From the NCBI GenBank assembly GCA_040752695.1, contig JBFMGO010000094.1, positions 1-22,103 of the forward strand: DNA of 22,103 nucleotides. The letters are read 5' to 3'. The position numbers and the translations under genes are program-made. Shown piece after piece: positions 5,220-21,740 of this stretch (positions within the stretch are counted from its first letter, which is position 1; the number at the start of each line of letters is the position of its first letter). The DNA is from a bacterium. GTDB lineage: Bacteria; SZUA-182; DTGQ01. The notes beneath the pieces are model-generated. The model searched no databases and was not told the DNA's origin. It saw only the letters and a program-made list of their open reading frames with translations.

Positions 5220-8144
5220 TTAAAACCAGGAGCCGATGGCCGAAATAAAACACGTTTTTGATTTGCCTGAAGATTCCGAAGGTACGAGGATATACTCAGG
5301 CTTCGTATTGTTGGGATCTTGAGGCGTAGCGTAAATATTCTGCGACGGCAGACTTTCGATATCATACTCGTTATATGCGGTGAGCAGGATCCAGTAAGTG
5401 GTGTTGTTCTGAAGATTGGTGAGGGTGTAGGTGCTCACATCCCCCACATCAACCTTATTTTTCAGGTTTCTGGTGCTGCTGCTCCCAGTTCCGTCTATTC
5501 CGCCCGGAGTACCGCCAGTGCCATCCATGCCGCTGTTATCCCATCCGCCACTGCTGCCTCCATCGCCGGGAGTACCACCGCCGCCTGGAGTACCGCCGCT
5601 GCTGCCGGGAACACCGCCGGGATTATAGCGGCTCACGGGCTGGAGTGCCTTGATTGCGGAAATGTCATAGTAGAGATAGTAGCCGTTGGCTGCATCAACC
5701 CTCTCCCAACTGAGTTTGACCGTAGAGGCATCGACGGTGACCAGGATTGATGCCGGCCTGGATGGAGGCTCGGCTATGCCTTTTCTCCCGAAACTTTCTT
5801 GAATCAAATCCCTGTTCACTTTGTTGTACTTGGCCTCATCTACGGCCAGAACATCCAGGAGGAAATCCAGGTAAGTAACCGGCTCTGCATACATAGCGTA
5901 TAAAAAGAGGGTATCGGCTACCTTGATCCCATTTTCTCCCTTGTACTTATCGTAGAGCTTGTTGCGCAGGTCCCACATGGCACCGGACAGAATGAGGCTG
6001 CTTTCATAGAGATCATCCCCGTAATTAAGCTTGTAGTGCAGGTCATTGTTAAGGTCCCGCAAGGCACCGCCGGTCCAGAACCCGCCTTCGGCAATTTGCG
6101 AATCGTCATTCAGGGTACAGGCCCAGTAATCGGAAAACGCCTCATGCATGGCATCGAACTGATTGAAGCGGCTCGGATTGGAGAAGGGATTACTCTTGTA
6201 GATGCTGTCCGTGACAGCATGAGCTACTTCATGGTAAATGATGTCTGAAAAGAGCGAGAAATCCTGATACTCAGATTTGTTTCCCTCCCCCAGGTAGATT
6301 CCGTCACCTTCGAGCCAGTAGGAATTCGTGCTCTCCGCTGTATTATGAACCGTTACGGAAATGGGAAAGGAAGATGCATTTTTCACAGGAAAGTTCGGAT
6401 CAATTGTTCGAAGGTACTCGATAAGACGATTAGAGTGATAATAGGCATTCAACTCATCGATGTCCGCTGAGGCGCTGATCACTCCGGTATCAGTCTGAAC
6501 ACTGTAGTCGCTGGCGGGCTTGAGGTTAATGGTGATGTCCTGGCTGTTTCGGTTGACATTACCGCTGGTATAAACCAGTCCTTCCCCCATCGTGGTTCGT
6601 ATCTGAAAATAGGTCCCCTTGAGGTTAATATCAAGAATATTGCTCTGTGCCTCATCAGTAAAGGTGAAACTTCCATTCACGTTCGTCACTGACTGGTTCC
6701 CCTGATAGACACCGATATCGTCCAGGTTCCACCCGCAGTAGTTATAGTAACTGTTGGTCGTTCCAAGCCCCCATCGGATAGAGAGGGTATTCTGGCTACT
6801 GGTCAACAAAGATGACAGATCGTAAGAGATCAGTTTCCATGTTCCATCGTAGATCGGGTCTTTCGGATTTGACCAGACTTCACGCCAGGTGCCTGGAAAG
6901 TCGCTGACTTCAATAGTGGCTCTGTCCGAATCCGACCCTTCGACTCCAAGCCATCGCCAGAATCTGAGCACGATTTTCCCCCCTTCGCCGGCTTTGCTCA
7001 TAGCCGGAGTGCTCAGGTATTCCCGGTTGGGCATGTTATTGGGGTAGCTGCCCTGAAGGTTATACCCGTAAACCTTGGATCCTGTGTGGCCAGAGGCCGG
7101 ATCTGCCCAGGTTTCATTGTTCTCCGGCTGCGGCGTGCCGTATCCCCAGCCAAACAGTGATGTGCCGGACCAGCCCGGATCGGAGCCGAGATCCTCGTAC
7201 ATCAGGGGATTGGTCTTATCTAAAAGCATGATCTTCAGATTTGGAAAGGGAACCTGAATTGTCTGATTGGGATATTTGGGAAAGATCAGCCCTTGAACTT
7301 TTCCAGAAACCGCGTAGCGCGCCCGATCGTAGCCTTCGACAACGGTTTTGTCATGAGCGTCAATCAAATACCTCCACCCCTTCCTTTGAGTCCTGGAGGT
7401 CAGGTTGACCTCCCAGCACAGCCTGTAGGAAGTATTCTGATTGTCCTCCTCCGTGCTCGGGTAGATAACCAGCCGGAGATCACTGCCGGTGAAAGAATCC
7501 GACGAAAGGCCGAGATCACCCGCTGCAATGTCCAGTGCTGTCTGGCTTCCTAAAGATGCTGTCGTATCAATGACTATTCCCGGATAAAATGTTCCGCCAA
7601 AATTCAGGAGCTTGCCGGATTTGTGGTAGCGGAAAATCAAACTGCTCCCATACACTGGGACATCCTGAACGTACTGCATGAACCGTACAGACCAGATTCC
7701 TCCTCTTTGGTAGACTTCCTCCTGCCGGAAATTCTCGCTGCTTACGCCGAAGACCGATTCGTTTTCCTGTATGAATTTTTTCGCCTCTTCGGCAAAATCC
7801 GTCTGATTGTTCAATTTCCTGGCGGCATTCTCTGAAGGGTCCGTATTGTCTACCCGAAGATAATGTGCAGTTTCATCCCGCAGGATCCTCCATTTTTCTC
7901 CATTTTGAGCCAGAAAAGATTTCCATGTCTTATCCTTTTGAAGTTCTTGAGGGGTAACTCGGCGAATGTTTTCTCCTCTCCTGGTATAACCGCCGGTCAA
8001 CCCTTTTTCACCTTTATTCGCATGAGTCGAAAAAAGTGCATGAGCAGGACTGCTCCAGAGAGCTGTCCCTCCGATAAGAATAATGAGAGATAGCATAGTA
8101 AAAAGAAAACCAAGCAGTCGGTCGCGTTGAAACATGATGAACAA
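5220..8144 (-). CDS. Secreted multidomain zinc metallopeptidase, M4/M36-like: signal peptide, FTP/PepSY-like propeptide, inserted beta-sandwich, gluzincin domain, FN3, CFI-like C-terminus
   Basis: Signal peptide ending SPAHA. Propeptide motifs RFMQYVQDVPVYGS and WRYLIDAHD. Zinc motif HEVAH plus downstream HEAFSDYW. NSYW...YLGEG resembles thermolysin NAFW..YGDG. FN3 motifs LSWE..GYYLYY, LTNLQNNTTY..LTAYN. Ends CFISAIGSWF. Start could be TTG 8144 or ATG 8135. Confidence 0.82.
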   Translation of the reverse strand: MFIMFQRDRLLGFLFTMLSLIILIGGTALWSSPAHALFSTHANKGEKGLTGGYTRRGENIRRVTPQELQKDKTWKSFLAQNGEKWRILRDETAHYLRVDNTDPSENAARKLNNQTDFAEEAKKFIQENESVFGVSSENFRQEEVYQRGGIWSVRFMQYVQDVPVYGSSLIFRYHKSGKLLNFGGTFYPGIVIDTTASLGSQTALDIAAGDLGLSSDSFTGSDLRLVIYPSTEEDNQNTSYRLCWEVNLTSRTQRKGWRYLIDAHDKTVVEGYDRARYAVSGKVQGLIFPKYPNQTIQVPFPNLKIMLLDKTNPLMYEDLGSDPGWSGTSLFGWGYGTPQPENNETWADPASGHTGSKVYGYNLQGSYPNNMPNREYLSTPAMSKAGEGGKIVLRFWRWLGVEGSDSDRATIEVSDFPGTWREVWSNPKDPIYDGTWKLISYDLSSLLTSSQNTLSIRWGLGTTNSYYNYCGWNLDDIGVYQGNQSVTNVNGSFTFTDEAQSNILDINLKGTYFQIRTTMGEGLVYTSGNVNRNSQDITINLKPASDYSVQTDTGVISASADIDELNAYYHSNRLIEYLRTIDPNFPVKNASSFPISVTVHNTAESTNSYWLEGDGIYLGEGNKSEYQDFSLFSDIIYHEVAHAVTDSIYKSNPFSNPSRFNQFDAMHEAFSDYWACTLNDDSQIAEGGFWTGGALRDLNNDLHYKLNYGDDLYESSLILSGAMWDLRNKLYDKYKGENGIKVADTLFLYAMYAEPVTYLDFLLDVLAVDEAKYNKVNRDLIQESFGRKGIAEPPSRPASILVTVDASTVKLSWERVDAANGYYLYYDISAIKALQPVSRYNPGGVPGSSGGTPGGGGTPGDGGSSGGWDNSGMDGTGGTPGGIDGTGSSSTRNLKNKVDVGDVSTYTLTNLQNNTTYWILLTAYNEYDIESLPSQNIYATPQDPNNTKPEYILVPSESSGKSKTCFISAIGSWF

Positions 8145-8209
8145 TTCCCTCCTTCACATAATGAGATACATGTACACTTTGTTGTCAGGGCTGTTTGTTT
8201 GCTCTGTGG

Positions 8210-8225
8210 TGCATATCCTGTACCA
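8210..8225 (-). promoter_or_regulatory. Candidate sigma54 (-24/-12) promoter of the metallopeptidase gene
   Basis: Minus strand TGGTACAGGATATGCA = GG-N10-GC, about 65 nt upstream of the start codon. Confidence 0.55.
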
Positions 8226-8543
8226 AAAGCGATTCTTCACCTAAACAAGAAAATGGAGAGGAAAACAAACTGATGTGAAAGGAAATGCTGTCCTCTTTCC
8301 TTACCGGCCAGCAGGTTAGGTGTCCTTTTTCAGCAGGGAGCTTTGGTTAATTTTTGAACAGCGATGCAGGTGGAAGGCGGATTGCCTGGAATTGAACAGG
8401 GACGCAGGTGAGAGGCGGATTGCCTGGATCGGGCATTAGGTTTTGCAGACTGGCCGGATGATCGATCAGGTAATTGAGTTGCTTGAAGCTTCAGATGCTT
8501 GCAGCCCCCCCCCGATTGATGGCATCTGTCGATTGCAGCCATT

Positions 8544-8579
8544 AAAAAGGGGATCAGCCTTCTTTAGGCTGATCCCCTT
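8544..8579 (-). terminator. Intrinsic terminator ending the Gly/Tyr-protein gene array
   Basis: Perfect 14-bp stem AAGGGGATCAGCCT / AGGCTGATCCCCTT with a 5-nt loop, running into a U-tract on the minus strand, ~70 nt after the stop at 8647. Confidence 0.85.
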
Positions 8580-8646
8580 ATACGAGCTAAGCAATCCAGT
8601 TAAAAGGAGATTTACACCTTTTATAAAAAGTCCAGTTCTCGCCCTC

Positions 8647-9948
8647 CTAGAACAGGAGGAAATACAGACCAGAGATTACCGCCGGCACCGCTGTAGCCGT
8701 AGGAACAACAGGAGCAGGAACGAGAGCTGTAGGTGCAGCAACCGTAGGAGCAACGATTGTAGGAGCAACAACAGGAGCGACAACCGTAGGTACAACTGGA
8801 GCGGCAATCGTAGGTACAACAGGAGTTACGACCGTAGGTACAGGCGGAGGAACAACAACCGTAGGTACAACTGGTACCGTGGGTACGACAGGAGCGACAA
8901 CCGTAGGTACAAGCGGAGGAACAACAACCGTAGGTACAACTGGTACCGTGGGTACGACAGGAGCGATAACCGTAGGTACGAGAGGCACCGTGGGTACGAC
9001 TGGAGCGACAACCGTAGGAGCAACAACCGTAGGAGCAACAACCGCAGGTGCTACAGCCGGAGCAGCAATGGTAGGAGCAACAGCCAGGGTAAGATCAAAA
9101 CTTCCTGCCTGAGTAACTCCCAGGGCGGTAGCTACAGCGCCGGTAGCTACAACCGCGATATTCCAGGTACCGGTCATGGTTGTAGGACTGGTCAGGGTTC
9201 CATTGATCTGCAGAGCATATTTACCCAAAGGATCGATTCCACTGACACTGACTGAATAGGCAGTAGAGGTGCCATAAACCGTAATCGCTGCCGGGATAAG
9301 AGCGTTTCCAAAGAGGGTTGCCGTTCCACTGAGGAATCCGGTTATAGGATTCTCGACCAGGGTCAGCGTCATATCAGCAAACAGAAAGCCAAGATGCCAG
9401 GTTCCGGTCCAAGCCCCGGCCTGTTCGGTAGAAGCAAAAGAAAGCAGACCTCCCAGGTTTCCAAAGCCAGTCGGCCTGCCCAGACTGCTGTACATTCCAC
9501 CCAGTCCGCTATACATGCTGCCGCCGTATATTCCACGCAGGCCGCCATACAGGCCACCCAGACCGGAATACATTCCACCCAGGCCGCCATACAGGCTGCT
9601 GCCATACAGCCCGCCGCCATACAGCCCGCCCATACCGTAGAGGCTGCCACCATACAGGCTGCCGCCATACAGCCCGCCGCCATACAGCCCGCCTAAACCA
9701 TAGGTTCTTCCCATGCCGCTATACATACCACCATACAATCCACCGCCATACATACTTCCGAACAGACCACTACCCAGACCATAGGAGCCAAGACCATAGG
9801 ATCTACTCCCTAAGAGACTCGAAAGACTGGAGAAACCGCCACCATAAGAGCCGTAATATCCTTCACTTGGCTTGGCGAGAGTGATCATCAGGCAAAAGAC
9901 TAAGAGACACGATAAACAAGTCCATAATTTTCCAATATTCTTCTTCAT
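8647..9948 (-). CDS. Secreted Gly/Tyr-rich repeat protein (paralog A): GLYG repeats, conserved beta domain, Val/Pro/Thr/Ala tail
   Basis: 433 aa. Signal peptide MKKNIGK...PSEG then [13 protein letters not shown] repeats, [10 protein letters not shown] domain, (VAPVVPT)n tail ending [12 protein letters not shown]-like GAAAGG upstream. Clear paralogy with neighbours. Confidence 0.9.
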
Positions 9949-10043
9949 AAGACGATACCTTCTTTACATAAAATGCACTTTGACGCGCATTGCTTAACAT
10001 TCTCAAGAACTCGTAAAAGCTCCTTTGGATAAAAGGCAAAGAG

Positions 10044-10085
10044 GGTGACCTTCTCTTTTTTACGTTTCTTCAAAAGAAGGTCACC
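10044..10085 (-). other. Intergenic stem-loop upstream of paralog A
   Basis: GGTGACCTTCT (10044-10054) pairs with AGAAGGTCACC (10075-10085). Purine-rich loop in the mRNA sense. Confidence 0.7.
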
Positions 10086-10133
10086 TTAAGCCCGTTATCC
10101 TATAACTCCTTCAGCCTTACGATGCCTTATCCT

Positions 10134-11039
10134 TTAAACAACAGGTGTAGACAGGGTAAGGTTAAAGCTGCCGGTTTCTTTGATCGAACTGCTGTTGATC
10201 AAAGTATAGGTTCCAGTCATCGTGGTCGTAGAAGTCAGAGTTGCCACGATATCAATGGTATAGGTCGTACTGCCAAGGCCAAGACCAGAGCCGGAGATAA
10301 TGAGCTGGTTGTTCAGAGCTGTTCCGGTAACATCTACCAGGGTGCCCAGGAAGGGGTTACCCAAAAGTTGAACGTATCCAGCCAGCCCTCCAAGGACAGG
10401 ATCTACAATGATATTGAGAGTCATAGGCCCGGAGACCAGTCCTGAAGACCATATACCAGTCCAGGTTCCAGCCTGCTCTGCAAGACCATATCCTAAGCCA
10501 CCGAAACCGCCCAGGCCACTGTAAAGGCCGCCGCCGTACAGACCGCCAAGACCGCCATACAGGCCGCCCATACCACCATACATACTGCTGCCGTACAGAC
10601 CGCCCATACCACCATACATACTGCTGCCATAAAGGCCACCGTACATGCCGCCATACAGGCCACCCATACCGTAGAGTCTGCTACCATACAGACCGCCGCC
10701 ATACAGGCTGCTCATACCGTACATGCCGCCATACAGGCCGCCCATACCGTAGAGGCTGCTGCCATAAAGGCCGCCCATACCATAGCTGCTGCCATACAGG
10801 CCGCCATACAGACCGCCCAGACCACCATACATGCTGCTGCCATAAAGGCCGCCGTACATGCCGCCCATACCGTAGAGGCTGCTACCATACAGACCGCCGC
10901 CATACAGGCTGCTCATACCGTAGAGGCTGCTGCCATAAGAGCTGTAATATCCTTCACTTGGGGTGGAGAGAGTGATCATCAGGCAGAATACTAACAGGAA
11001 CGATAAACCGGTCGATAATTTTCCAAAATTTGTCTTCAT
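10134..11039 (-). CDS. Secreted Gly/Tyr-rich repeat protein (paralog B): GLYG/YGSS repeats plus conserved beta domain
   Basis: Start moved from 11060 to ATG 11039 ([15 protein letters not shown]) by homology with paralog A and an upstream AGAAGGT. 301 aa. [11 protein letters not shown] domain, ends LSTPVV. Confidence 0.9.
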
Positions 11040-11130
11040 CAAACGATACCTTCTTTGCATGAAATACTCTTATGCATTGCTTAAAAATCTCAAGAGCTTG
11101 TGAAAGCCCGGGTTTACAAAGCAGGGAGAG

Positions 11131-11169
11131 TGGCCTTCTCTTTTTCAGTTTCCCTACAAGAGAAGACCA
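11131..11169 (-). other. Intergenic stem-loop upstream of paralog B
   Basis: TGGCCTTCTCTT (11131-11142) pairs with AAGAGAAGACCA (11158-11169), one mismatch. Homologous to the hairpin at 10044. Confidence 0.65.
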
Positions 11170-11219
11170 TATCTCCTCCACGCGACATGTAACGTAAGCC
11201 TTATAAAAAACCTTCTTCT

Positions 11220-12044
11220 CTAAATAACAGGTGTAAGTAAGCTAAGGTTAAAGCTGCCTGTTTCTTTGATCGAACTGCTGTTGATCAAAGTGTACGTACC
11301 GGTCATCGTAGTCGTAGAGGTCAGAGTTGCCACTATATCAATGGTATAGGTCGTACTGCCAAGGCCAAGACCAGAACCTGAAATAATGAGCTGGTTGTTC
11401 AGAGCTGTTCCGGTAACATCCACCAGGGTGCCCAGGAAGGGATTACCCAAAAGTTGAACGTATCCAGCCAGCCCTCCAAGGACAGGATCCACGATAAGGT
11501 TGAGAGTCATTGGCCCGGCAACCAGTCCTGAAGACCAGGTACCATTCCAGGTCCCTGCCTGCTCAGCAACCGCTGGTGCTGTGGTTGTCCCACCAAGCAG
11601 CGAGCCAGACAAAGCTGATAAGAGCGCTATCGTACTCAAATCACCCATGCCGTAGAGCCCGCCAAGGCCATAGAGTCCACCAAGACCGTAGAGCCCGCCG
11701 TAGAGCCCCAGACCGCCGTACAGTCCGCCGTAAAGCCCCAGACCGCCGTACAGCCCGCCATAGAGCCCCAGACCGCCGTACAGCCCGCCATAGAGCCCCA
11801 GACCGCCGTACAGACCGCCGTAGAGGCCGTAGCCGCCATACAGCCCGCCGTAGAGCCCCAGACCGCCGTACAGCCCGCCGTAGAGGCCGTAGCCGCCGTA
11901 CAGACCGCCGTAGAGCCCCAGACCTCCATATAAACTTCCCAAACCCAATCCATAGTAGGCATCCGCTTTTTTCGCGGGTGTATTAACAAGAGCAAGCGTA
12001 AGTAATAAGATTGTAATCAGTACTTTAACCTTAGAGAAACGCAT
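11220..12044 (-). CDS. Secreted Gly/Tyr-rich repeat protein (paralog C): 10-aa YGG(L/Y)GLYGGL repeats plus conserved beta domain
   Basis: Start moved to ATG 12044 (MRFSKVKV..KADA|YYG) because of an AAGGAG RBS and homology to paralog E. 274 aa. 30-bp DNA repeats at ~11690-11930. AEQAGTWNGTW domain, ends LLTPVI. Confidence 0.9.
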   Translation of the reverse strand: MRFSKVKVLITILLLTLALVNTPAKKADAYYGLGLGSLYGGLGLYGGLYGGYGLYGGLYGGLGLYGGLYGGYGLYGGLYGGLGLYGGLYGGLGLYGGLYGGLGLYGGLYGGLGLYGGLYGLGGLYGLGGLYGMGDLSTIALLSALSGSLLGGTTTAPAVAEQAGTWNGTWSSGLVAGPMTLNLIVDPVLGGLAGYVQLLGNPFLGTLVDVTGTALNNQLIISGSGLGLGSTTYTIDIVATLTSTTTMTGTYTLINSSSIKETGSFNLSLLTPVI

Positions 12045-12190
12045 ATTTAAACTCCTTCTCTCTCCCCCTTGGTTTTGCACAGTAGCTCAAAGGATAGTGA
12101 GAATCAGCTTTACTATACTCCACTTTGAATAAAACAATCAGTCATTTTGAAAAGGAGATCCATGTTATACAATAATTATCATCCTCACTG

Positions 12191-13573
12191 CTAGAACAGG
12201 AGGAAATACAGACCAGAGATTACCGCCGGCACCGCTGTAGCCGTAGGAACAACAGGAGCAGGAACGAGAGCTGTAGGAGCAGCAACCGTCGGAGCAATGA
12301 GTGTAGGAGCAACAACTGGAGCAGCAACCGTAGGTACAACAGGAGCAGCAACTGTAGGTACAACAGGAATCACAATCGTAGGTACGACCGGAGGAGCAAC
12401 AACTGTAGGCACTATTGGAGCGATAACCGTAGGAACGACTGGAGCGACAACCGTAGGAACGACTGGAGGAGCTATAACCGTAGGTACTATTGGAGCAGCA
12501 ACCGTAGGTACTACAGGAGCAACAACCGTAGGAGCGACAACTGTAGGAGCGACAACCGTAGGAACGACAACCGGCGCAGGAATGGTAGCAACAGTAGTCA
12601 GGGTAAGATCAAAGCTTCCTGTCTGGAGAACTCCCAGAGCCTTAACTACAATACCGGTGGCTACACTTACGATACTCCACGTTCCGGTCATGGTTGTAGG
12701 ACTGGTCAAGGTTCCATTAATCTGCAGAGCATAAAGACCAGCAGCAGTAATTCCACTGAGGCTGACAGAATAAGGAGTAGAGGTACCATAGACCGTAACC
12801 GGTGTTGGGACAGAGGCATTTCCAAACAGGGTTGCCGTTCCGTTGAGGAATCCGGTCAAAGGATCTTCAACCAGGGTCAAGGTCATGTCAGCAAACAGAA
12901 AACCCAGATACCAGGTTCCTGTCCATGCTCCGGCCTGCTCAGCAGCAATAACTGTAGCCGCAGGTGCAGGCGCAGCAGGTGCTGCCGGAACCACAGCAGG
13001 AGTAGTAGTGGTGGTGGTAGTGGTAGTAAGTCCGCCCAGCAGGCTTCCCAGATCTCCCAGTCCTCCCAGACCGCTCAAGCCACTCAGGCCACCCATCATG
13101 CCCATCATGCCCAGGCCACCGTAAAGACCGCCATACATTCCGCCATAGAGGCCGCCATACATTCCGCCGCCATACAGACCGCCCAGACCGCTATAGATTA
13201 TGCCGCGGTTATATCCACCAAGACCGTACATTCCGCCCAGGCCGCCATATAAACCGCCATATAAACCGCCATACATGCCCATGCCGTATAAGCCGCCATA
13301 CATGCCCATGCCGTAGAGGCCGCCATACATGCCCATGCCGTATAAGCCGCCATACATACCGCCCAGGCCGCCATATAAACCGCCATACATGCCCATGCCG
13401 TATAAGCCGCCATACATACCGCCATACATACTGCCATACAGACCACCGCCATACAGGCCACCATAGGAACCATAGTAGCCTTCACTTGGCCTGGAAAGGG
13501 CAATAATCAAGCAGAATATCAAGAGGTAGGATAAGCAGGCTTTTAACCATAATTTTCCAAAATCTTCCTTCAT
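12191..13573 (-). CDS. Secreted Gly/Tyr-rich repeat protein (paralog D): YGGLYGMGM repeats, poly-Thr linker, beta domain, Val/Pro/Thr/Ala tail
   Basis: Start moved to ATG 13573 (MKEDFGKLW..PSEG|YYG), RBS AAAGGA. 460 aa. [11 protein letters not shown] domain. The tail ends identically to paralog A. Confidence 0.9.
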   Translation of the reverse strand: MKEDFGKLWLKACLSYLLIFCLIIALSRPSEGYYGSYGGLYGGGLYGSMYGGMYGGLYGMGMYGGLYGGLGGMYGGLYGMGMYGGLYGMGMYGGLYGMGMYGGLYGGLYGGLGGMYGLGGYNRGIIYSGLGGLYGGGMYGGLYGGMYGGLYGGLGMMGMMGGLSGLSGLGGLGDLGSLLGGLTTTTTTTTTPAVVPAAPAAPAPAATVIAAEQAGAWTGTWYLGFLFADMTLTLVEDPLTGFLNGTATLFGNASVPTPVTVYGTSTPYSVSLSGITAAGLYALQINGTLTSPTTMTGTWSIVSVATGIVVKALGVLQTGSFDLTLTTVATIPAPVVVPTVVAPTVVAPTVVAPVVPTVAAPIVPTVIAPPVVPTVVAPVVPTVIAPIVPTVVAPPVVPTIVIPVVPTVAAPVVPTVAAPVVAPTLIAPTVAAPTALVPAPVVPTATAVPAVISGLYFLLF

Positions 13574-13665
13574 CTTACATCCTTTCCTTAACATCAGGCA
13601 CTGCATGCATTAGTGCATACAGAACCCAAATCTCTCAGAACCCTACACTAAAACCTCTCGTTAGA

Positions 13666-13709
13666 CGGGAGGGTAACCCTTCTTTACTTTCTTGGGGACT
13701 ACCCTCCCG
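13666..13709 (-). other. Intergenic stem-loop upstream of paralog D
   Basis: CGGGAGGGTA (13666-13675) pairs with TACCCTCCCG (13700-13709), extendable inward. Purine-rich loop in the mRNA sense. Confidence 0.7.
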
Positions 13710-13740
13710 GTAAAGCATCTCAACCTGAAAAAGTTATTGT

Positions 13741-14487
13741 TTAGATAACAGGAGTAAGCAGGCCGAGTTGGAAACTACCAGTTTCAACAAGTGAAGAACT
13801 GTTGATCAAGGTGTAGGTACCGGTCATGGCCGTAGTAGAGGTCAAGGTACCCGTAATATCAATAGTGAAGGTCATGCCGCCAAGGCCGATACCGGAGCCG
13901 GAGAGAATGATCTGGTTATTAAGAGAGGTACCGGTGACATCCACCAGACTGCCCAGCGTGGGATTGCCCAAAAGTTGAACGTATCCGGCCAGTCCTCCGA
14001 GGACGGGATCCACAACGATATTGAGAGTCATCGGTCCGGAAACAAGCCCTGAAGACCACAGACCTTCCCATGTCCCGGCTTGTTCAGCAAGACCATATCT
14101 CAAACCACCATAACCATACAGGCTGCTGCCGTATAAACCGCCATACAGGCCCATGCCGTAGAGGCCGCCATACAGGCCCATGCCGTATAAGCCGCCATAC
14201 ATACCATAGCCGCCATACAGACCGCCATACATGCCCATGCCGTATAAGCCGCCATACATGCCCATGCCGTAGAGGCCGCCATACATGCCCATGCCGTATA
14301 AGCCGCCATACATACCATAGCCGCCATACAGACCGCCATACAGCCCGTAGCCGCCACCATAGAGACCACCATATAAGCTTCCCAAACCCATTCCATAGTA
14401 GGCATCTGCTTTTTGTGCAGACATACTCATGAGAGCAAAAAACAAAAATGAAAGTGTAATCGCTACCTTAACCTTAGAGAACCGCAT
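13741..14487 (-). CDS. Secreted Gly/Tyr-rich repeat protein (paralog E): YGGLYGMGM repeats plus conserved beta domain
   Basis: 248 aa. MRFSKVKV..KADA|YYG, AEQAGTWEGLW domain, ends LLTPVI. GGAG RBS upstream. Confidence 0.9.
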   Translation of the reverse strand: MRFSKVKVAITLSFLFFALMSMSAQKADAYYGMGLGSLYGGLYGGGYGLYGGLYGGYGMYGGLYGMGMYGGLYGMGMYGGLYGMGMYGGLYGGYGMYGGLYGMGLYGGLYGMGLYGGLYGSSLYGYGGLRYGLAEQAGTWEGLWSSGLVSGPMTLNIVVDPVLGGLAGYVQLLGNPTLGSLVDVTGTSLNNQIILSGSGIGLGGMTFTIDITGTLTSTTAMTGTYTLINSSSLVETGSFQLGLLTPVI

Positions 14488-14696
14488 GATACCAACTCCC
14501 TCTCTCTCCCCCTCCTAGCACGTAATGAATAAGTGGTTAACGATTGAATTAAATGCATGAAATGCACACGACAATTGATTTACTCCCGATAAACAACCAC
14601 CTCCTTACTTTTTGATCATCGACAAACAAAGATTCCGGCATAGTTTGTCAATGGAGTTGTTCCCATAATATGTACTCCTCTCTTCTTTACCCACTT

Positions 14697-16556
14697 TCAG
14701 GATCCCGAATAGTAATAATAGGGGAATTGAATCATTGACAATGGACCCATCGATAACGGATTGGCAACCAGCGACAGTAGATTCGTTCCCACAGACCATG
14801 ATAGTGGATTCATACTCAGAGACCACGGGTACGTAACCAAAGACCGTTGATTCGAACTCAGCGACAACGAGTTCGTACCGAAAGACCATGGATTCATGAA
14901 CACAGACCATGGGTTCGAACTCAGAAGCAATGAGTTCGTACCAAAAGACCATGGATTTGCGAACGTTGATAACGGATTCAAACCCGTAAAAAGCGACGGC
15001 TGCTGAAAATTGCTCCCGAACAAGGGAAAAGGGCCCGCCAATTCAGCCAGAATCGCACTGGACGGGTCGATTCCGAAAAAAACAGCCAAAGGATCCGGCT
15101 GAGATAAACGAAGAAGCGTCGAATTCAGAACAGGATCCGCAGCCAATGCCAGGGGCACCAGGCCACCCGCCACTGCTGCTACAGGCAAAACCGATTGCAC
15201 TGCTGCCAGTGCATCGATCAGCCCCCAGCCGAAGTCCTCATCCCAGCCCGCAGTTCCAAGATCTATAGCCGTGGCTTCCAGGGTGGTTTTCAAGGCATCG
15301 GGACTTAAAGTATTCCCAGCCACAGATTGAACCAGAGCAGCCACACCCGAAGCATGGGCAGCGGCACAGGAAGTTCCCTGATAGAGTGCGTAATTGAACT
15401 GCGTAAAGACTGTTCCGTCATGAGTCTGCTGACAGATGCCGTCCTGGTGTCCGTCCTGGTTCTGGTCAACGGAAAGATCGCCACCCGGAGCACAGATATC
15501 CACATCCGGTCCATAGTTGGAATAAAATGGACGGGTCCTGTCGTATCGAACCGCGCTGACACACACGCAGGTGGGATACGACGAAGGATAGTGGGGAATG
15601 CTGGTGGCATTGTTTCCCGCAGAGGTAATGATACTCACCCCATTCAGGTAAGCATAATTAACCGCGTCCTGGAGCGTCGCAGATGCGGTATACGTACCAA
15701 AACTCATGTTAATGATTTTAATACCATTATTGACCGCATAGTAAATCCCGTCGGCAATATCACTGAAAAGACCATTGCTTGAGCTGTCCAGCACCTTGAT
15801 CGGCATGATGGTACATCCATAGGCGATTCCGGCTACACCCAGAAGATTATTGGTGGTCTGGGCAATAGTGCCCGCTATGTGAGTGCCATGTCCGTTATCA
15901 TCGTCCGAATAGCCATCGTCATTGACGAAATCCCAGCCTGGCTTAAAGAGTGTGCCCGCAAAGTCCGGGGCCCTGACATAAATCCCATTATTTTCAAAAG
16001 CTACACCGGTATCGATTACGGCCACCGTAACACCGCTTCCATTGGAAAGATCCCAGGCCAGTTCCATATTGATCATGGGGAAGTTCCATTGGTAAATATA
16101 GTAAGGATCGTTCGGAACCAATTCGGCCCTGGCCAGATAATTGGGCTCTGCGTACTCAATGGCAGGATCCTGTCTCAGAAGCGCAGCGACTTCCAGTGCA
16201 TTGTTGACGGGAAGCACTGCACGTTGAAAGCCTGTTCTGATATTCGCTTCGACTCCTCTGATCCCCTGGCTGGCCAGAAGCCGCGAGACCTGTGCCTGAC
16301 TGACTCCTGCTCTCACCCTGAAGATAACCTCGTTCGGAGCAAACGCGCCAACATCTAAGGACCGGAATGCAAAAGGCACAATTGCCCCCGGTACAGGGAG
16401 AAGAAAAAGAGCCCGGCATCTTACCGGATACAAAAAGAGGCAGAAAGACCCAAGAATACATAAAACGAATTTTGGCTGATCGCCTCGCCACTTTGTATTT
16501 GACAAAGCAGCCATGATAATGCTTAAATTCTTTCCTGATGGCATAGTTTTTTTCAA
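14697..16556 (-). CDS. Secreted subtilisin-like serine peptidase (S8) with propeptide and a low-complexity NPWS-repeat C-terminal tail
   Basis: Catalytic motifs VAVIDTG (Asp), HGTHIAG (His), SAGN (oxyanion Asn), GTSCAAAH (Ser). EYAEPNY/PNDPYY propeptide junction. Hydrophobic N-terminal segment ending RCRA. The start is uncertain (TTG 16556, ATG 16544 or ATG 16514). Confidence 0.92.
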   Translation of the reverse strand: MKKTMPSGKNLSIIMAALSNTKWRGDQPKFVLCILGSFCLFLYPVRCRALFLLPVPGAIVPFAFRSLDVGAFAPNEVIFRVRAGVSQAQVSRLLASQGIRGVEANIRTGFQRAVLPVNNALEVAALLRQDPAIEYAEPNYLARAELVPNDPYYIYQWNFPMINMELAWDLSNGSGVTVAVIDTGVAFENNGIYVRAPDFAGTLFKPGWDFVNDDGYSDDDNGHGTHIAGTIAQTTNNLLGVAGIAYGCTIMPIKVLDSSSNGLFSDIADGIYYAVNNGIKIINMSFGTYTASATLQDAVNYAYLNGVSIITSAGNNATSIPHYPSSYPTCVCVSAVRYDRTRPFYSNYGPDVDICAPGGDLSVDQNQDGHQDGICQQTHDGTVFTQFNYALYQGTSCAAAHASGVAALVQSVAGNTLSPDALKTTLEATAIDLGTAGWDEDFGWGLIDALAAVQSVLPVAAVAGGLVPLALAADPVLNSTLLRLSQPDPLAVFFGIDPSSAILAELAGPFPLFGSNFQQPSLFTGLNPLSTFANPWSFGTNSLLLSSNPWSVFMNPWSFGTNSLSLSSNQRSLVTYPWSLSMNPLSWSVGTNLLSLVANPLSMGPLSMIQFPYYYYSGS

Positions 16557-16629
16557 GAATAGTGACTGTAAAAGTTAATCTTAAGGGCCCCCGGAAAAAA
16601 GAGCCCTACCCCTTGCTCTTCTTATGGTT

Positions 16630-16645
16630 AGCATAGTTGATGCCA
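16630..16645 (-). promoter_or_regulatory. Candidate sigma54 (-24/-12) promoter at the head of the S8 + Gly/Tyr array
   Basis: Minus strand TGGCATCAACTATGCT = TGGCA, GG-N10-GC, ~75-90 nt upstream of the S8 start. Confidence 0.65.
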
Positions 16646-16968
16646 ATGTTGTTTTTTTGAAGATAGATACAGGCTGGCTCTGGATCGAATGGATATCTGA
16701 AAAATTTCCGGCAGATTTTCGGTCTATCCGGTGATCGGTGCAGTCTGTCCCTTACGGAAACTCTTTTTCTTTCACGGACCTTAATAAGGTACCGCAACAT
16801 AGTATAAAAATTACCTCTTGAAGGGATACGCGGCCACTTTCCGGCTTTCATTGTCCAATGATTGAAGAGGGGGGTAAAATTTATGCAGTATTGGAAAATT
16901 TTATGGAGGCTTCGAACGACAGAGCTGTTTTTCAACGATATGCCGTTTTTTATGAAAGGTATCAGCTT

Positions 16969-18483
16969 ATGAAACGGACCTTACGATATCTGGCAATTCT
17001 GTCTTTCTTCCTGGTAGTTATCCTGCTTGGCTTATTTAAAATCGTTAACTTTGACGTTGGCTGGCATCTGAAAGCCGGCGAATATATTTGCTCCCATAGA
17101 TCTATCCCCAGGCAGGATATGTTTTCTTATATAGCTCAGGGGAACAAGTGGGTTGACTCGCACTGGCTGTTTCAGGTGCTGCTGTATCTTTCGTACACGC
17201 TCGGAGGGGCAGGCGGCGGCATTGTCTTGCGTATTCTGGTAATCGGCCTTACCTTCGGTCTTTTATTTCTGACCATCTATCGGAAAGAATATTACCACGT
17301 TTCTGTGGTCATCTGCCTTGCAGCTTTATTCATGGCCTTTCAGAGGTTTCTCCTGCGGCCTGAAATTTTTACCTTCCTTTTTCTGGCTCTTTTTGTCTAC
17401 GGTGCGGAAAACTTTTCAAAGCATCCCCGCTTATCCCTGATCGTGATTCCGGTCGCGCAGGCTCTGTGGGTTAACATGCACGGCCTGCACGTCCTGGGGA
17501 TAGCTTTTCTTGGGCTTTACCTTCTGGGAGATCTGGTTCAGACCCTGCTCAACAGGCATATACCTTTTGTCCCGGCAATAGAGGCAAGACCGGGTGAATG
17601 GCGGCAAAAAGGACTCCTGTCCGGCCTGACCTTATTTGCACTCCTCATCAATGCCAACGGATTTGACGGCATTCTCTACCCTTATAAAATCTTCGGCGAA
17701 CTGAAAACCAAGCCCATGATTTTTTCCATGCTCACAGAACTGGTTTCTCCCCTTTCGATCAAGCAGGCACCATTCCCTGACCCATGCGTGATCTATAAAA
17801 TCTTTCTTCCCCTCTCTGCTCTTGCCCTGGTCCTGCAAATCAAGCGTCTTCGCCTGGCTCACCTGCTTCCCTGCGGAGCATTTTTTTACCTTTCGCTTCT
17901 GGCTATCAGGAACGTGCCCCTGTTTGCGATTGTAGCCACTCCCATGACCATCCGGAACATTCATGGTATTCTCGATTTCTGTCAGAAGAAAAAATTCTTC
18001 CCTGCCACCTGGCCAGTTTCTCCCGTGGCCGGCGTCCCGCTCATTGCCCTGTCTCTCTGGACGTGCGTATTTATTGCCGATAACGGACTGTATCACAGGC
18101 TGCATTACCTGCGAACCTTCGGATTCGGCATATCCGATAGCTATCCGAAAGAGGCCGTTGACTACCTGAAGGGCAGAAACCTGGCAGGGAACATCTTTAA
18201 CAGCTCTGATATCGGAGGCTACCTGCTCTGGCAGATGTACCCCCCAAAACAGGTGGCTCTGGATGGCAGGTGGGAGGTATATGGTGATTTTCTCGATAAT
18301 CTCAAAAGACTCAACGATCCGAGGTACTTTGCCGAACTGACGGCAAAATACCGCATCGAAGCCATTATCCTCTACAAACGATCAATGGAAATAAGCCTCA
18401 TGGCCCCATGGCTGCAAATCAGTCCCTTTTGGCAGCCAGCCAGGGAAACGGATACAGCCATTGTCTACGAAAGAGTGGATTAG
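16969..18483 (+). CDS. Polytopic membrane protein, probable GT-C-type glycosyltransferase-like
   Basis: About 10 hydrophobic segments. D(V)GWHLxxG right after TM1, HWLFQ, LRPEIF, WVNMHG, and a C-terminal soluble domain with GGYL.W and DGRW. Start moved to ATG 16969 (GAAAGGT upstream); the ORF track start is 16858. Function is inferred from the motif pattern only. Confidence 0.65.
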   Translation: MKRTLRYLAILSFFLVVILLGLFKIVNFDVGWHLKAGEYICSHRSIPRQDMFSYIAQGNKWVDSHWLFQVLLYLSYTLGGAGGGIVLRILVIGLTFGLLFLTIYRKEYYHVSVVICLAALFMAFQRFLLRPEIFTFLFLALFVYGAENFSKHPRLSLIVIPVAQALWVNMHGLHVLGIAFLGLYLLGDLVQTLLNRHIPFVPAIEARPGEWRQKGLLSGLTLFALLINANGFDGILYPYKIFGELKTKPMIFSMLTELVSPLSIKQAPFPDPCVIYKIFLPLSALALVLQIKRLRLAHLLPCGAFFYLSLLAIRNVPLFAIVATPMTIRNIHGILDFCQKKKFFPATWPVSPVAGVPLIALSLWTCVFIADNGLYHRLHYLRTFGFGISDSYPKEAVDYLKGRNLAGNIFNSSDIGGYLLWQMYPPKQVALDGRWEVYGDFLDNLKRLNDPRYFAELTAKYRIEAIILYKRSMEISLMAPWLQISPFWQPARETDTAIVYERVD

Positions 18484-18576
18484 GAGCTTCCTCCCCCGGT
18501 TCCCGATTTTGTAGAGAGTCTTTTTGCGAAATTTCTTTGAAGAATCTTCTTGGGATAATCACGCTGATTGTGTGGT

Positions 18577-19386
18577 CTAAACCAGCCCTTCCCTCCCCTT
18601 GCGCTGAGCCCAGAGAGTTCCCAGACGGGGAAAGATAAAGCCGGTATTTTGCTTGTAGACCCGGTATTCAGGAAGATGCATCGATAGCTTGCGCTCTTCC
18701 AGTTTTGCCCGCGAAAGCTGCATGATTGAGACTACGATAAAGAAGCTGTAGGAAAATCGATTATTAAAGAGCATACAGACCCCCAATAGATGAGTCAACT
18801 CACCAGTATAAAGGGGATGGCGGATGAACCGGTATGCTCCGGTATTAATCAGCTTGCGCACTTCGACCATAACGCTGAAGGAATTTTTGAGCTGCCACAA
18901 GGAAGCGATGTTCAACGTGATTCCGACAACACAAAAGATCAATCCTATGAGATAAACGGTCGGCACGTAGTTACTTTTAGTGTTGGTAGACAGAATCGAA
19001 GTGCCGATCAGATGGAACCCCACCACAAAGACCGGATAGAATCTTTCCAATACTCCCTGCGCTTGCTTCTTGGGCGTAGACCGGATAATATAGCTGAAGA
19101 CGACGATTCCCATAAAAATGGATACAAAAATGCTATTGACCAGGCCAAGGATCGAAGGAAGAGTAACGTGCGCTTGCGCCTTCAGGCTGAAAATGGTAGG
19201 CACCAGACCTCGAATGAGCATGACCAGGAAGAATATAATGGGGAGGGGATAATTCTTTATCCAGTTTCTGCCATCTTCCGGGGATACCCAGTAGATATAG
19301 AGAGAAAAAAATACCAGCGGAACAATAATACTCCAATTCTCCAGGCAAAAATTAAAAATGTTTTCCAAATAAGCGATCATTCCCAT
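18577..19386 (-). CDS. Isoprenylcysteine carboxyl methyltransferase / PEMT-like membrane methyltransferase
   Basis: Multiple TM segments, then FSVMVEVRKLINTGAYRFIRHPLYTG and RAKLEERKL...YRVYKQNT, the ICMT/Ste14/PEMT C-terminal signature (G.Y..RHP.Y, EE). Confidence 0.82.
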   Translation of the reverse strand: MGMIAYLENIFNFCLENWSIIVPLVFFSLYIYWVSPEDGRNWIKNYPLPIIFFLVMLIRGLVPTIFSLKAQAHVTLPSILGLVNSIFVSIFMGIVVFSYIIRSTPKKQAQGVLERFYPVFVVGFHLIGTSILSTNTKSNYVPTVYLIGLIFCVVGITLNIASLWQLKNSFSVMVEVRKLINTGAYRFIRHPLYTGELTHLLGVCMLFNNRFSYSFFIVVSIMQLSRAKLEERKLSMHLPEYRVYKQNTGFIFPRLGTLWAQRKGREGLV

Positions 19387-19731
19387 TCCCTTCCTTCTTC
19401 CGGTCCAGTTTGGTCCCCGGTCTGGTATCCGGACTGATATTCCGGTTTATCGTAAAGCAACCCCGCCCGGCCTCTCTTCCCCATGAGAGGCAATGTTCAT
19501 CAAGTAAGGGGAAACCTCCCGCCTTTCCTGTGCTCTCCTAAGGGAGGAAAAGCCAGGGGTCAGCACTCCTGCCAATTGGCTTAAAAATCCCTCCCGAAGT
19601 CAACAACCACAACCCAAAAACATATCAACCTCGGCAGCAAACATGACAGCCACCGTAAAAAACGCGGCACTTATGGCAATAAACACAGACCTTACCAAGT
19701 ACCTCAAACATGGCACCTACGATAGAAACAC

Positions 19732-19861
19732 AGCCGTAGTAGCACCAAACGATAATAAACACAGCGAAGGTTGACCGTCTCTTAAAGGAAAATCTAAGCC
19801 GTAGTAGCACCAAACGATAATAAACACAGCGAAGGTTGACCGTCTCTTAAAGGAAAATCTA
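19732..19861. repeat. Exact 65-bp tandem duplication
   Basis: AGCCGTAGTAGCACCAAACG...GGAAAATCTA at 19732-19796 and 19797-19861. The second copy includes the stop codon of the 19859 gene. Confidence 0.95.
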
Positions 19862-20698
19862 AAAGGATCTTTGCGGTGCACCCCGGAATTTGGGAAACAA
19901 GAAGCCGGTTCTTGCCTTATAATCAGCATATTCGGGTAAAACCACCAAAAACTTTCTTTCCTCAAATTTCGCTCTGATCGCTTCCAGGGTAAAGAAAAGA
20001 ATATAGATAAAAAGGGTTGCAGAATTGAGGAGAAGTAAGGTCGTTCCAAGAGCATGGGTCAACTCAGCAAAGTAGAGCGGATGCCGCATATACTTATAAA
20101 ATCCGGTAGTTACAAGTTGCCTGACTTCGACCATGAGGCTGAAGGAATTCTTTAGTCTCCACAGGACGATACAACTGAGTGTACATCCAATAAGGGAAAG
20201 CACAAAGCCTGCTATTCCAACCGTGTGTACAAACGATGGAGATTGATAAAGATTCCGGAACAGGAAATCACTCTCTATGGGAATAGGATAATAGAGCAGA
20301 TAGGTAAAAGAAACCATAGGGATAAGAACGGTAATGATGGGGAACCACCTCTCCCAAAACCCTTGCGCCTTCCCTTTATCACTAACTGGTTTGACCCGGA
20401 TCAGATAGGTGAAAACGATAAGCAGATCAAACAAGATAGCAGCAATCGTATACATGAAATCCAGGACAGGACGGGAGAAAAGAATTGCCTTGATACCGGT
20501 AAAGCTTTGATCAATTCCATACATGACACTGACGAAACTGGTAGTGATATCAATTTTACCGATAAAATGATAGACCTTTAAACCAATAAGAGAGCCGAAA
20601 AATAAAAATGGGACCGGATCACTGATGATCTTTTTGATATAGGTTACAGGATTTTTCATGGAATAGTTTCTTTCCTGTTCATTACTCACATTATTCAT
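19859..20698 (-). CDS. Second ICMT/PEMT-like membrane methyltransferase (paralog of 18577-19386)
   Basis: FSLMVEVRQLVTTGFYKYMRHPLYFAE, RAKFEERKF...YADYKARTGFLFP. Shares AQG..ER..P with its paralog. Confidence 0.82.
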   Translation of the reverse strand: MNNVSNEQERNYSMKNPVTYIKKIISDPVPFLFFGSLIGLKVYHFIGKIDITTSFVSVMYGIDQSFTGIKAILFSRPVLDFMYTIAAILFDLLIVFTYLIRVKPVSDKGKAQGFWERWFPIITVLIPMVSFTYLLYYPIPIESDFLFRNLYQSPSFVHTVGIAGFVLSLIGCTLSCIVLWRLKNSFSLMVEVRQLVTTGFYKYMRHPLYFAELTHALGTTLLLLNSATLFIYILFFTLEAIRAKFEERKFLVVLPEYADYKARTGFLFPKFRGAPQRSF

Positions 20699-20760
20699 GG
20701 TGCAGCCCCTTATTTGATAAATGGTTAAAAAAGGTTTTCGTGGTTCTTGACTTACTGCTT

Positions 20761-20776
20761 ATCAAGTTTGTTGCCA
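20761..20776 (-). promoter_or_regulatory. Weak sigma54-like motif upstream of the methyltransferase pair
   Basis: TGGCAACAAACTTGAT: TGGCA and correct spacing, but GA rather than GC at -12. About 60 nt upstream of ATG 20698. Confidence 0.3.
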
Positions 20777-20845
20777 ACCGCCTCTTTTGAAATACCTGCC
20801 GGGCAACAAGATGATCAATTAACCTTTCCCAAAAGAGAATCGCCA

Positions 20846-20939
20846 TGTTGAAAATCCCCTCTCTCCCCTTTTTACAAAAGAGGGAATAAGGTGTATTCTC
20901 TTGTTAAAAATCCCCCCAGCCCCCTTTATAAAAAGGGGA
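20846..20939. repeat. Two related REP-like palindromic units
   Basis: TGTT.AAAATCCCC...CCCCTTT..(A)AAA.GGGA at 20846-20886 and 20902-20939, each with a CCCCTTT/AAAGGGG-type hairpin. Confidence 0.55.
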
Positions 20940-21104
20940 GCGATATGCATCGGGAAAGGTTCATAACAATAAGCCGATCAATTTATGAGATTTATCCCTG
21001 GTATTTTCTCCTAATATTAATAATAACTGAAAATGATGTCAATAAATTATTCGTTTTAAGCAAAGTAAAGCAAAGCCTGTAATTTTATTACTGGTAATCC
21101 TCGT

Positions 21105-21147
21105 AAAAAAAACCCTCTCCTTCGGTTTTCGAAGGAGAGGGTTTTTT
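21105..21147 (-). terminator. Intrinsic terminator (bidirectional architecture) after the sixth Gly/Tyr gene
   Basis: A8-CCCTCTCCTTCG-loop-CGAAGGAGAGGG-T6, ~60 nt after the stop at 21205. Confidence 0.9.
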
Positions 21148-21204
21148 GTTGTATCCAGGATTGCTATCACCAAAGGAGAGCTGCTTCACTCTCACCTCGA
21201 TGCC

Positions 21205-21684
21205 TTATTGGGAAACGGCAGTAGTCGTACCAGAAGAAGATAACTGTTTCAACAGGGAAGTCCAGCCCAGTAATTCAGATTGATCCTGCAGCATGAAAAG
21301 GCCACCCAGTCCGTACATTCCACCCGATCCGTAGAGTCCGCTCAATCCGTATAATCCACTCAACCCGTAGAGTCCACCCGATCCGTAGAGTCCGCTCAAC
21401 CCGTATAATCCACTCAACCCGTAAGGTCCGCCGTATAAACTGCCTAATCCACTCAATCCGGATAATCCATAGAGCCCGAGGCTATATCCTCCATAGAACC
21501 CAGGGTACACGCCGCTCTGGCCGTACCAGCCGAGACCATATAGCCCACTCCCGTAACTGCCGTAATATCCTCCCCCATAAAGACTGTAATAGCAACTCCC
21601 AGGTGAAGAAAAAGTAACTATCAGTATGCCGATTACTAAAAAAGTGCGTATATATACCAGAGTCTTTCTGCCGATAGTCAGCAC
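21205..21684 (-). CDS. Secreted Gly/Tyr/Ser-rich repeat protein (paralog-like F), without the beta domain
   Basis: Likely GTG start at 21684 (GGGGAGG 6 nt upstream; the ORF track start is 21711). Hydrophobic signal ending SPGSC, then [19 protein letters not shown] repeats and a short amphipathic tail. Confidence 0.8.
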   Translation of the reverse strand: MLTIGRKTLVYIRTFLVIGILIVTFSSPGSCYYSLYGGGYYGSYGSGLYGLGWYGQSGVYPGFYGGYSLGLYGLSGLSGLGSLYGGPYGLSGLYGLSGLYGSGGLYGLSGLYGLSGLYGSGGMYGLGGLFMLQDQSELLGWTSLLKQLSSSGTTTAVSQ

Positions 21685-21740
21685 TGAAGTCCTCCCCTTT
21701 TCCGCTTCCACACTAACGTTTATTCAGCATTATATCCATT

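Follow-up and report, generated by a model that had tools for sequence, protein, structure and literature searches.

An order-wide family of exported Gly/Tyr-repeat barrel proteins, represented by a tandem array, probably contributes to the protein coat or matrix of a bacterial lineage

Results

The stretch of DNA analysed here, called the window, comprises 22,103 nucleotides (contig JBFMGO010000094.1 of assembly GCA_040752695.1) from an uncultured bacterium of the GTDB lineage SZUA-182, DTGQ01, whose genome is designated G000. Its central feature is an array of five co-oriented open reading frames (ORFs) on the minus strand, at 8647-9948, 10134-11060, 11220-12080, 12191-13606 and 13741-14487, which encode paralogous Gly/Tyr-rich (G/Y) proteins. 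On one side of the array lie genes for an S8 subtilase, a putative glycosyltransferase of the GT-C fold and two ICMT/PEMT-family methyltransferases, and on the other a gene for an M4 metallopeptidase. All five array proteins have a hydrophobic leader followed by YY, a block of G, Y, L, M and S, and a 115-aa domain that starts with [AT]EQAG and is named the barrel below after its predicted fold. The original prediction, made from the letters of the window, had described this succession of signal peptide, YY, repeats and conserved domain, and it was confirmed here, with blocks of 104-178 aa; what it had not mentioned is a Pro/Val/Ala/Thr tail of 135-145 aa on the two long paralogs. The blocks consist of 38-44% Gly and 15-25% Tyr, with one to four charged residues (His included) and zero to five Pro, and the barrels of the window share 39-82% identity with the copy at 13741. 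Signal peptides were called by eye and with a heuristic of our own, and Shine-Dalgarno sites place the likely true starts of four G/Y genes at 11039, 12044, 13573 and 21684.

Paralog 1 (13741..14487, minus strand; 248 aa) carries a signal peptide, YY at nt 14400, a 104-aa G/Y/L/M block and a barrel at 14088-13744, and ends in PVI. Paralog 2 (12191..13573, minus), of the long type, has a 178-aa G/Y block with a poly-Thr/Ala-Pro linker, a barrel from nt 12943, a 135-aa Pro/Val/Ala/Thr tail and an aromatic end. Blocks of 130 and 156 aa precede the barrels of paralog 3 (11220..12044, minus; barrel 11567-11223) and paralog 4 (10134..11039, minus; barrel 10481-10137), and paralog 5 (8647..9948, minus), again of the long type, combines a 143-aa block with a barrel from nt 9429 and a 145-aa tail of the same composition. 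The sixth Gly/Tyr gene that had been claimed at 21205 is indeed present (21205..21684, minus); its secreted product has a signal, YY and a 128-aa mature part, and lacks a barrel. None of these six proteins matches Pfam or NCBIfam at E<=0.1. A seventh gene of the signal-YY G/Y type lies just beyond the window, at contig positions 22356-23027, and a likely ortholog of it is found upstream of an S8 gene in the genome G003.

The intrinsic terminator predicted at 8544 ends the array and separates it from the M4 gene (8544..8579, minus); it has a 14-bp stem (8579-8547) and a U-tract running to 8544, with a z of -6 that none of 200 shuffles equalled. A separate promoter and terminator scan gave no excess over shuffles and overlooked this terminator. 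Minus-strand hairpins with approximate ends and no U-tract follow paralog 1 (13667..13708, z -2.6), paralog 3 (11120..11181, z -2.9) and paralog 4 (10044..10085, z -4.7); none was seen in the fourth inter-paralog spacer or in the spacer to the S8 gene. As hairpins without U-tracts in three of four paralog spacers, they would fit segment-stabilising loops in a single message, and the S8 gene through the 8544 terminator is probably one transcript. A strong terminator (21104..21147, minus, approximate ends, z -7.7) stands after the sixth G/Y gene, between it and the ICMT pair, and terminators divide the 16.5-kb block into at least four transcription units. Rfam returned no matches. Upstream of 39 YY-type ORFs, a motif search enriched Shine-Dalgarno words only, and sigma-54-like sites amounted to eight loose matches in seven of the 39 genes, none of them in the five paralogs.

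The barrel is predicted with high confidence to be a soluble, eight-stranded, avidin-like barrel. An AlphaFold2 model built on an alignment of 66 domains has eight strands and a predicted local distance difference test (pLDDT) score of 93.4. The top Foldseek rows were avidins, two spirocyclases and lipocalins, the avidins with a template-modelling (TM) score of about 0.65 and none of them at E<=0.001. In VIA-align, the top two places went to de novo barrels (Z 14.0 and 13.6), followed by the QHNDH barrel (12.8), OmpA (12.5), Cap15 (12.4) and zebavidin (12.2), with root-mean-square deviations of 2.1-2.3 at Z 12-14 for the avidin and de novo matches; since these rows lie so close together, the fold points to no function. 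Across the 66 aligned sequences, strand columns alternate between W/M/L/V/I/F on one face, where Gly introduces kinks, and Thr/Ser/Asn/Gln on the other, a pattern, read from the alignment and not from coordinates, that suggests a soluble barrel. The invariant columns of the consensus are Gly and the near-invariant ones core W/F/L, with two Trp and no invariant polar residue. Between orthologs, nonsynonymous divergence is far below synonymous divergence (dN 0.11 and dS 0.94 for G001, 0.12 and 0.97 for G002); this dN/dS of about 0.1 indicates that the genes are real. A homodimer prediction scored 0.00 in both runs and counts neither way.

By sequence, the barrel matched no characterised family, which accords with the original view of the locus as a candidate undescribed system: searches of Pfam, NCBIfam and PDB sequences gave nothing credible, GFP matches at E>=0.018 being partial strand matches, and feature matches in the Atlas all stayed below 0.9. 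Among 1.84 billion representative sequences, 233 proteins were found at E<=0.001 and 91 at 1e-10, and the weaker representatives among the matches listed are small lipoproteins and surface-protein domains of other organisms.

It is noteworthy that the window is one cluster of a genome-wide and order-wide family, not a bounded system. The original prediction had treated the locus as the system, and this did not hold: G000 carries 26 barrel ORFs on 17 contigs, 18 of them of the GGLYG type, and the barrel profile matches all 13 genomes of the order (4-41 matches each) and none of the phylum's seven remaining genomes, whose completeness is 85-97%. The modules recombine: some arms (the G/Y blocks) lack a barrel, some barrels follow low-complexity heads of other kinds, and proteins of G007 string together as many as five barrels. 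In that genome, positions 3685-18599 of locus L028 hold an array of seven or more genes, each coding for one to five barrels; most of the proteins encoded there begin with a different conserved head (QNW..PPYNTLWPLWSP), which occurs barrel-less in G006. A third module, a non-repetitive motif of about 40 aa starting PF.LQN, was seen behind the G/Y arm in proteins with and without a barrel (L036, L035, L162 and contigs C35 and C3 of G000).

The barrel proteins form part of a larger class. Filters for signals and low complexity, both our own heuristics applied to six-frame ORFs, returned 93 signal-bearing ORFs dominated by low complexity in G000, 11 in 172 kb of G006 and 3 in 142 kb of G007, against none in 503 kb from three genomes outside the order (G014, G016 and G018), where a looser cut of >=40 aa gave five. 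Of the 90 such proteins scored in G000, 67 have no barrel. Among 21 class ORFs picked by eye, 13 matched a Pfam family and eight did not; the matches included rhodanese, polysaccharide deacetylase, CAP, I42 inhibitor, LRR and Ig/PKD as well as two multiheme cytochromes. G/Y or related low-complexity segments were also seen fused to CxxCH proteins and multiheme cytochromes (L162 1811-2572, L166 and L170), fusions that could wire redox proteins into a matrix.

A hydrophobic C-terminal residue appears to mark the class. In G000 and in a second set, the last residue falls within ILVFWY in all barrel proteins (23/23 and 32/32, with 8.4 and 11.1 expected from the composition of the class) and in most non-barrel members (46/67 and 28/30; 23.6 and 11.6 expected), compared with 203/736 (239 expected) and 45/126 (43 expected) of other signal-bearing ORFs; since homologous members were counted without clustering, the figures exaggerate how independent the cases are. 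The sequences thus describe about 90 exported, uncharged, aromatic low-complexity proteins, mostly with a free hydrophobic C-terminus. G000 encodes BamA, seven secretins (contigs C5, C7, C14, C46, C77 and C97) and parts of a type II secretion system (T2SS), as befits a diderm cell. Secretin number does not discriminate, at 3-8 in five genomes of the order and an overlapping 2-4 in five outside it. The T2SS on C5 includes a GspC with a PDZ domain (L153), a candidate reader of hydrophobic C-termini; in the one pair compared, the GspC-like protein of an outside genome gave no PDZ match at E<=0.001.

Among the neighbours, the S8 subtilase is the best-supported partner of the G/Y-barrel genes, as judged by linkage. 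The gene (14697..16556, minus) encodes a secreted protein with an intact triad (D182/H223/S396; PF00082 E 8e-56) and a 164-aa low-charge aromatic tail. Its subfamily is expanded in the order, with 4-10 copies per genome at E<=1e-60 and a best outside match of 7e-49. In 9 of 12 relatives (G001-G007, G009 and G010), the best S8 match has a gene of the G/Y or barrel kind as its neighbour, in three orientations, although the best matches in G003, G011 and G012 may be paralogs; by chance, such a neighbour within 2.5 kb is met by 117 of 1673 long ORFs in G000 (7%). The exceptions are G008, whose contig ends 0.7 kb on, and the 63%-complete genomes G011 and G012. All six close S8 paralogs in G000 carry similar low-complexity extensions.

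The other enzymes that had been named around the array were likewise recognised by Pfam, and the catalytic motifs of the S8, M4 and ICMT proteins are intact. The secreted M4-family metallopeptidase (5220..8144, minus; PF01447 E 6e-7) contains HEVAH at 638-642, E668, an FN3 domain and a C-terminal CFIS; it is specific to the order and weakly tied to the array. It stands behind the strong terminator, and its best match has no G/Y or barrel neighbour in any of ten genomes outside the genus, so that the claim of a partnership with the array was not upheld. Barrel genes do stand next to a second M4 paralog, at 1 kb in G000 and likewise in G003. Full-length M4 homologs (including L062-L070) all end in a CF-type motif, a signal unlike the C-terminus of the low-complexity class; we take these ends to resemble CFI-box sorting tails, and NCBIfam gave no sorting-domain match for the CFIS end.

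The polytopic membrane protein at 16969..18483 (plus strand), divergent from the S8 gene, probably has a GT-C fold. The earlier GT-C-like assignment stands only as a supported lead: the protein clusters in the Atlas with PMT_2, Dpy19 and STT3 at 0.92, and 12 members of its family gave no Pfam match. A low-confidence model (pLDDT 53) resembled DPY19, OST and AftA at E 0.04-0.2, with nothing at E<=0.001 in Foldseek, and the family is widespread in clusters of Planctomycetota and Chloroflexota. On the fetched stretches around the GT-C gene, a G/Y gene occurs in one of eight genomes outside the genus, G011 and G012 being left out for weak matches. The two ICMT/PEMT-family membrane methyltransferases (18577..19386 and 19859..20698, both minus) match PF04140/PF04191 over the cut-off at E 1e-9 to 1e-10. 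Outside the genus, 8 of 10 genomes have a G/Y gene no more than about 3.5 kb from the pair, five of these representing one genus and one arrangement. The S8 gene mostly keeps its place beside G/Y or barrel genes, and the links of M4 and GT-C are mostly lost outside the genus. Orthologs of M4, GT-C and ICMT each occur in 13/13 genomes of the order and in 0/7 others, a distribution that covers one branch, and the whole block ICMT-ICMT-GT-C-S8-array-M4 is syntenic only in G001 and G002 of the same genus, split by a contig break in G002. GT-C and ICMT may modify proteins of the array or envelope lipids.

Several further features were observed. At 2-2256 (minus), cas6 (Pfam E 7e-37) is followed by a 435-aa ORF that is open at the contig start and is presumably a type I-B Cas8 subunit. 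Positions 2659-5179 (plus) encode a sigma-54 activator, which has four GTDAG repeats and, ahead of its helix-turn-helix, a stretch of Asn/Ser, and then an HDOD protein; the pair stays beside M4 in G001, G002 and G003. Upstream of the M4 gene, a 37-nt direct repeat (89%) at 8354-8428 is a possible operator. A perfect 65-nt tandem duplication at 19732-19861 crosses the stop codon of the second ICMT gene and represents either a recent duplication or an assembly artefact, and a 100-base poly-C run (22004-22103, minus) beside a scaffold gap is probably a sequencing artefact. Elsewhere in these genomes, a cassette of a stomatin-associated radical S-adenosylmethionine (SAM) enzyme and a splicease-like radical-SAM enzyme, with signal-less YG substrates that have a HIFFE leader, is conserved across the order (L180, L181, L179 and L182-L190); of the copies in G000, one is near a barrel gene and the other beside an S8 paralog.

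Discussion

Dozens of barrel proteins probably supply this lineage with an outer coat or matrix of protein. For the window, we regard it as somewhat probable that the five genes encode subunits of a coat or matrix that self-assembles non-covalently and is remodelled by the S8 subtilase, and a structural role, as originally proposed, remains the best reading of these secreted proteins and their suckerin-like repeats. Assembly, location, export past the outer membrane, the substrate of S8 and modification are all inferred. The material would be the coat, sheath or matrix of one uncultured order of diderm bacteria. Sec export and cleavage by signal peptidase would expose the conserved YY N-terminus. 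The uncharged Gly/Tyr/Leu/Met arm, presumably disordered, could then self-associate through Tyr, Leu and Met stickers on Gly spacers, as in squid suckerin M2, and by the same analogy form first a condensate and later perhaps beta-sheet, with no covalent cross-links. The barrel, with its predicted Thr-rich outer face, may serve as a soluble folded node. Related low-complexity segments may act as tags that draw about 90 proteins, enzymes and cytochromes among them, into the same material, the free hydrophobic C-terminal residue may be a common recognition or sorting mark, and the similarly tagged S8 subtilase may trim or remodel the product. Dityrosine cross-linking had been suggested, and no enzyme candidate for it was found in G000: tyrosinase was detected in none of five genomes (with a silent control) and DyP in none of five, and multicopper oxidase and PF00141 peroxidase occurred in one of five each, in G007 only. 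This favours non-covalent aromatic assembly.

A number of points weigh against this interpretation. The polymer and its location are proposed here from genes, and low-complexity composition by itself is no proof of assembly. The beta-sheet module of suckerins (His/Ala/Val/Thr, Pro-flanked and alternating with M2) is absent from the paralogs. The barrel need not be structural, because N-terminal regions of other kinds also precede it and distant versions of it are part of ordinary lipoproteins. Three of the 12 relatives have no such neighbour at their best S8 match, and of the six close S8 paralogs in G000 only two have a low-complexity gene less than 2.5 kb away. In the census, the control group includes shadow ORFs, the filters are heuristic, and the outside controls are limited to 503 kb. 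Finally, all co-distribution rests on one clade and so amounts to one evolutionary event. A much wider proposal is more speculative, and we would give it perhaps a minority chance: that the whole order makes its outer envelope or matrix out of a secreted condensate with many components, about 90 low-complexity aromatic proteins. Suckerin-like arms and barrel nodes of the avidin type would join the subunits, a tag of this same kind would recruit enzymes and multiheme cytochromes, the free hydrophobic C-terminus would be a novel signal for sorting or docking, recognised by a PDZ-bearing GspC or by the barrel, and tagged subtilases would do the remodelling.

Other explanations share part of the evidence. 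The barrel could be the business end, a ligand or peptide binder or a protease inhibitor diversified by duplication, with the arm a mere tether or retention tag and no bulk material. Its fold neighbours include the binders avidins, GID4, Cap15 and PliC, conserved hydrophobic residues sit in loops at one end of the barrel, G007 proteins string up to five barrels in tandem, and barrel genes adjoin S8 proteases; but conservation resides in Gly and the W/F/L core with no conserved polar pocket set, and a barrel is missing from most low-complexity proteins scored in G000, which makes us think this improbable, if still worth bearing in mind. Rather less probable is a periplasmic coat around a storage inclusion, of sulfur or another deposit. 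Sulfur-globule proteins (Sgp) are likewise signal-bearing, repetitive periplasmic structural proteins according to PMC10386293, the cell is diderm, and nothing here indicates passage of the outer membrane. Yet PF17228 matched no window protein at E<=0.1 and none of five genomes (with its control silent), dsrA exceeded the cut-off in none of 20 genomes, soxB exceeded it in none of five with its control ringing (Sqr and sHdr were not searched), and that source gives one to six sgp genes per organism, compared with dozens here.

It also seems unlikely that the 16.5-kb block works as a system of its own, with M4, S8, GT-C and the ICMT pair devoted to maturation and with cross-linking of Tyr. The intact block in both genomes of the same genus, the confinement of M4, GT-C and ICMT to the order, the proximity of ICMT pairs to G/Y genes and the M4 paralog 1 kb from a barrel gene would all fit such a system; against them stand the multiple transcription units split by terminators, the missing G/Y neighbours of the best M4 match (10/10) and of GT-C (7/8), the single arrangement behind five of the eight ICMT cases, and the want of matches in G000 to multicopper oxidase, DyP, PF00141 peroxidase or, with a silent control, tyrosinase. 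ICMT-type enzymes depend, moreover, on cytoplasmic SAM. The [LM]YG repeats bring to mind the cores of spliceotides, peptides that are made on ribosomes and modified after translation (RiPPs), from which a radical-SAM splicease would remove tyramine and S8 would free ketoamide peptides. Spliceases work at XYG, and PlpX is able to act there when no leader is present, according to PMC11414181. Each paralog offers 10-24 [LM]YG sites of this XYG form, 10 of the order's 13 genomes encode splicease-like enzymes (E 1e-77 to 1e-86, under the cut-off), against none of seven others at that level, and in G000 one such enzyme is 2.4 kb away from a barrel gene. These enzymes, however, adjoin their own signal-less substrates with the HIFFE leader, which the paralogs lack, no SPASM gene is present on the window contig, and a barrel gene stands near the top-scoring enzyme only in the two genomes of genus g1 that have that enzyme, so we hold this origin to be very unlikely. 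Least probable of all, to the point of being barely credible, is a minimal outer-membrane beta-barrel that anchors the arm. Z values of 11.8-12.5 for OmpA, OprF and OmpW, the few charges of the domain and the hydrophobic C-terminal residue of the proteins recall such barrels, whereas one face of every strand is polar (Thr/Ser/Asn/Gln/Asp), an aromatic girdle is missing, barrels occur mid-protein and in tandem, and soluble barrels score as high or higher.

If the coat or matrix reading is correct, its implications extend beyond the window. Known bacterial protein materials, such as curli, Fap, TasA, chaplins, S-layers and Sgp, use a handful of genes. About 90 genes for uncharged aromatic low-complexity exports in one lineage would point to a different construction of the cell surface. 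Hundreds of variants of a natural bacterial block copolymer, joining a squid-like amorphous arm to a minimal barrel, would be suited to heterologous expression and to tests of sticker-spacer rules; the barrel, which resembles de novo designed barrels, would offer a new natural scaffold family, and the hydrophobic C-terminal mark would provide a handle on an unknown sorting rule. The family is undescribed in the literature searched, is larger than the original prediction held and has no bounded locus. That search left subscription papers and supplements outside, and descriptions of metagenome-assembled lineages could bear on novelty. Judged by title and the start of the abstract, publications with the repeat word concern squid-derived materials, turtle keratin and one wound study.

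The barrel shares its size and topology, an eight-stranded up-and-down barrel of about 115 aa, with avidin and streptavidin (zebavidin 4bj8, shwanavidin 3szh and rhizavidin 3ew2), with the de novo barrels 8ah9 and 6czj and with the QHNDH domain of 1pby, and it has their N-terminal GxW motif in common (Z 11-14, TM about 0.65). The biotin pocket of avidins is a set of several Trp, Tyr and Asn/Ser/Asp. In contrast to avidins, the window barrel shows 9-21% identity and only two conserved Trp, is fused to low-complexity arms and is massively paralogous; PF01382 matched none of 66 barrel members, and the barrel profile found no avidin among PDB sequences at E<=10. Curli and Fap resemble the window in having exported structural subunits in gene arrays, but the window has no match to curlin or another Pfam repeat, no Q/N-rich repeats and no CsgG-like gene, partial CsgG-like matches being on other contigs. 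The glycine-rich tick cement protein resembles the arms in being secreted, disordered and Gly-rich with aromatic stickers, and it is a model for ageing from liquid to gel (PMC11794139); it relies on cation-pi contacts of Arg, of which the window arms hold zero to four.

By analogy, the nearest precedents are the sulfur-globule proteins and suckerin M2, and the paralogs are members of neither group. Sgp proteins are Gly/Tyr-rich, and this bacterial precedent had been overlooked when the locus was likened to animal structural proteins. SgpA, SgpB, SgpC and SgpD (PF17228), as described in PMC10386293, share with the paralogs a signal and a repetitive body; the paralogs differ in having no PF17228, no Dsr or Sox marker over the cut-off, a folded barrel, Pro-free arms and dozens of genes in place of one to six. 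Squid suckerin M2 and the arms have the words GYG, GGY and GGLY in common, and GGLYG occurs 290 times in 43 ORFs of G000. In paralog 2, an unbroken stretch of 13 of 17 residues coincides with a published squid amorphous-domain peptide. In PMC11931252, M2 is described as amorphous and able to turn into beta-sheet through Tyr stacking. Suckerins possess a His-rich M1 and alternate as P[M1]P[M2]; the paralogs have neither, and instead join one long block to a folded barrel. The likeness to suckerins carries no sign of homology, and its simple reading is convergence.

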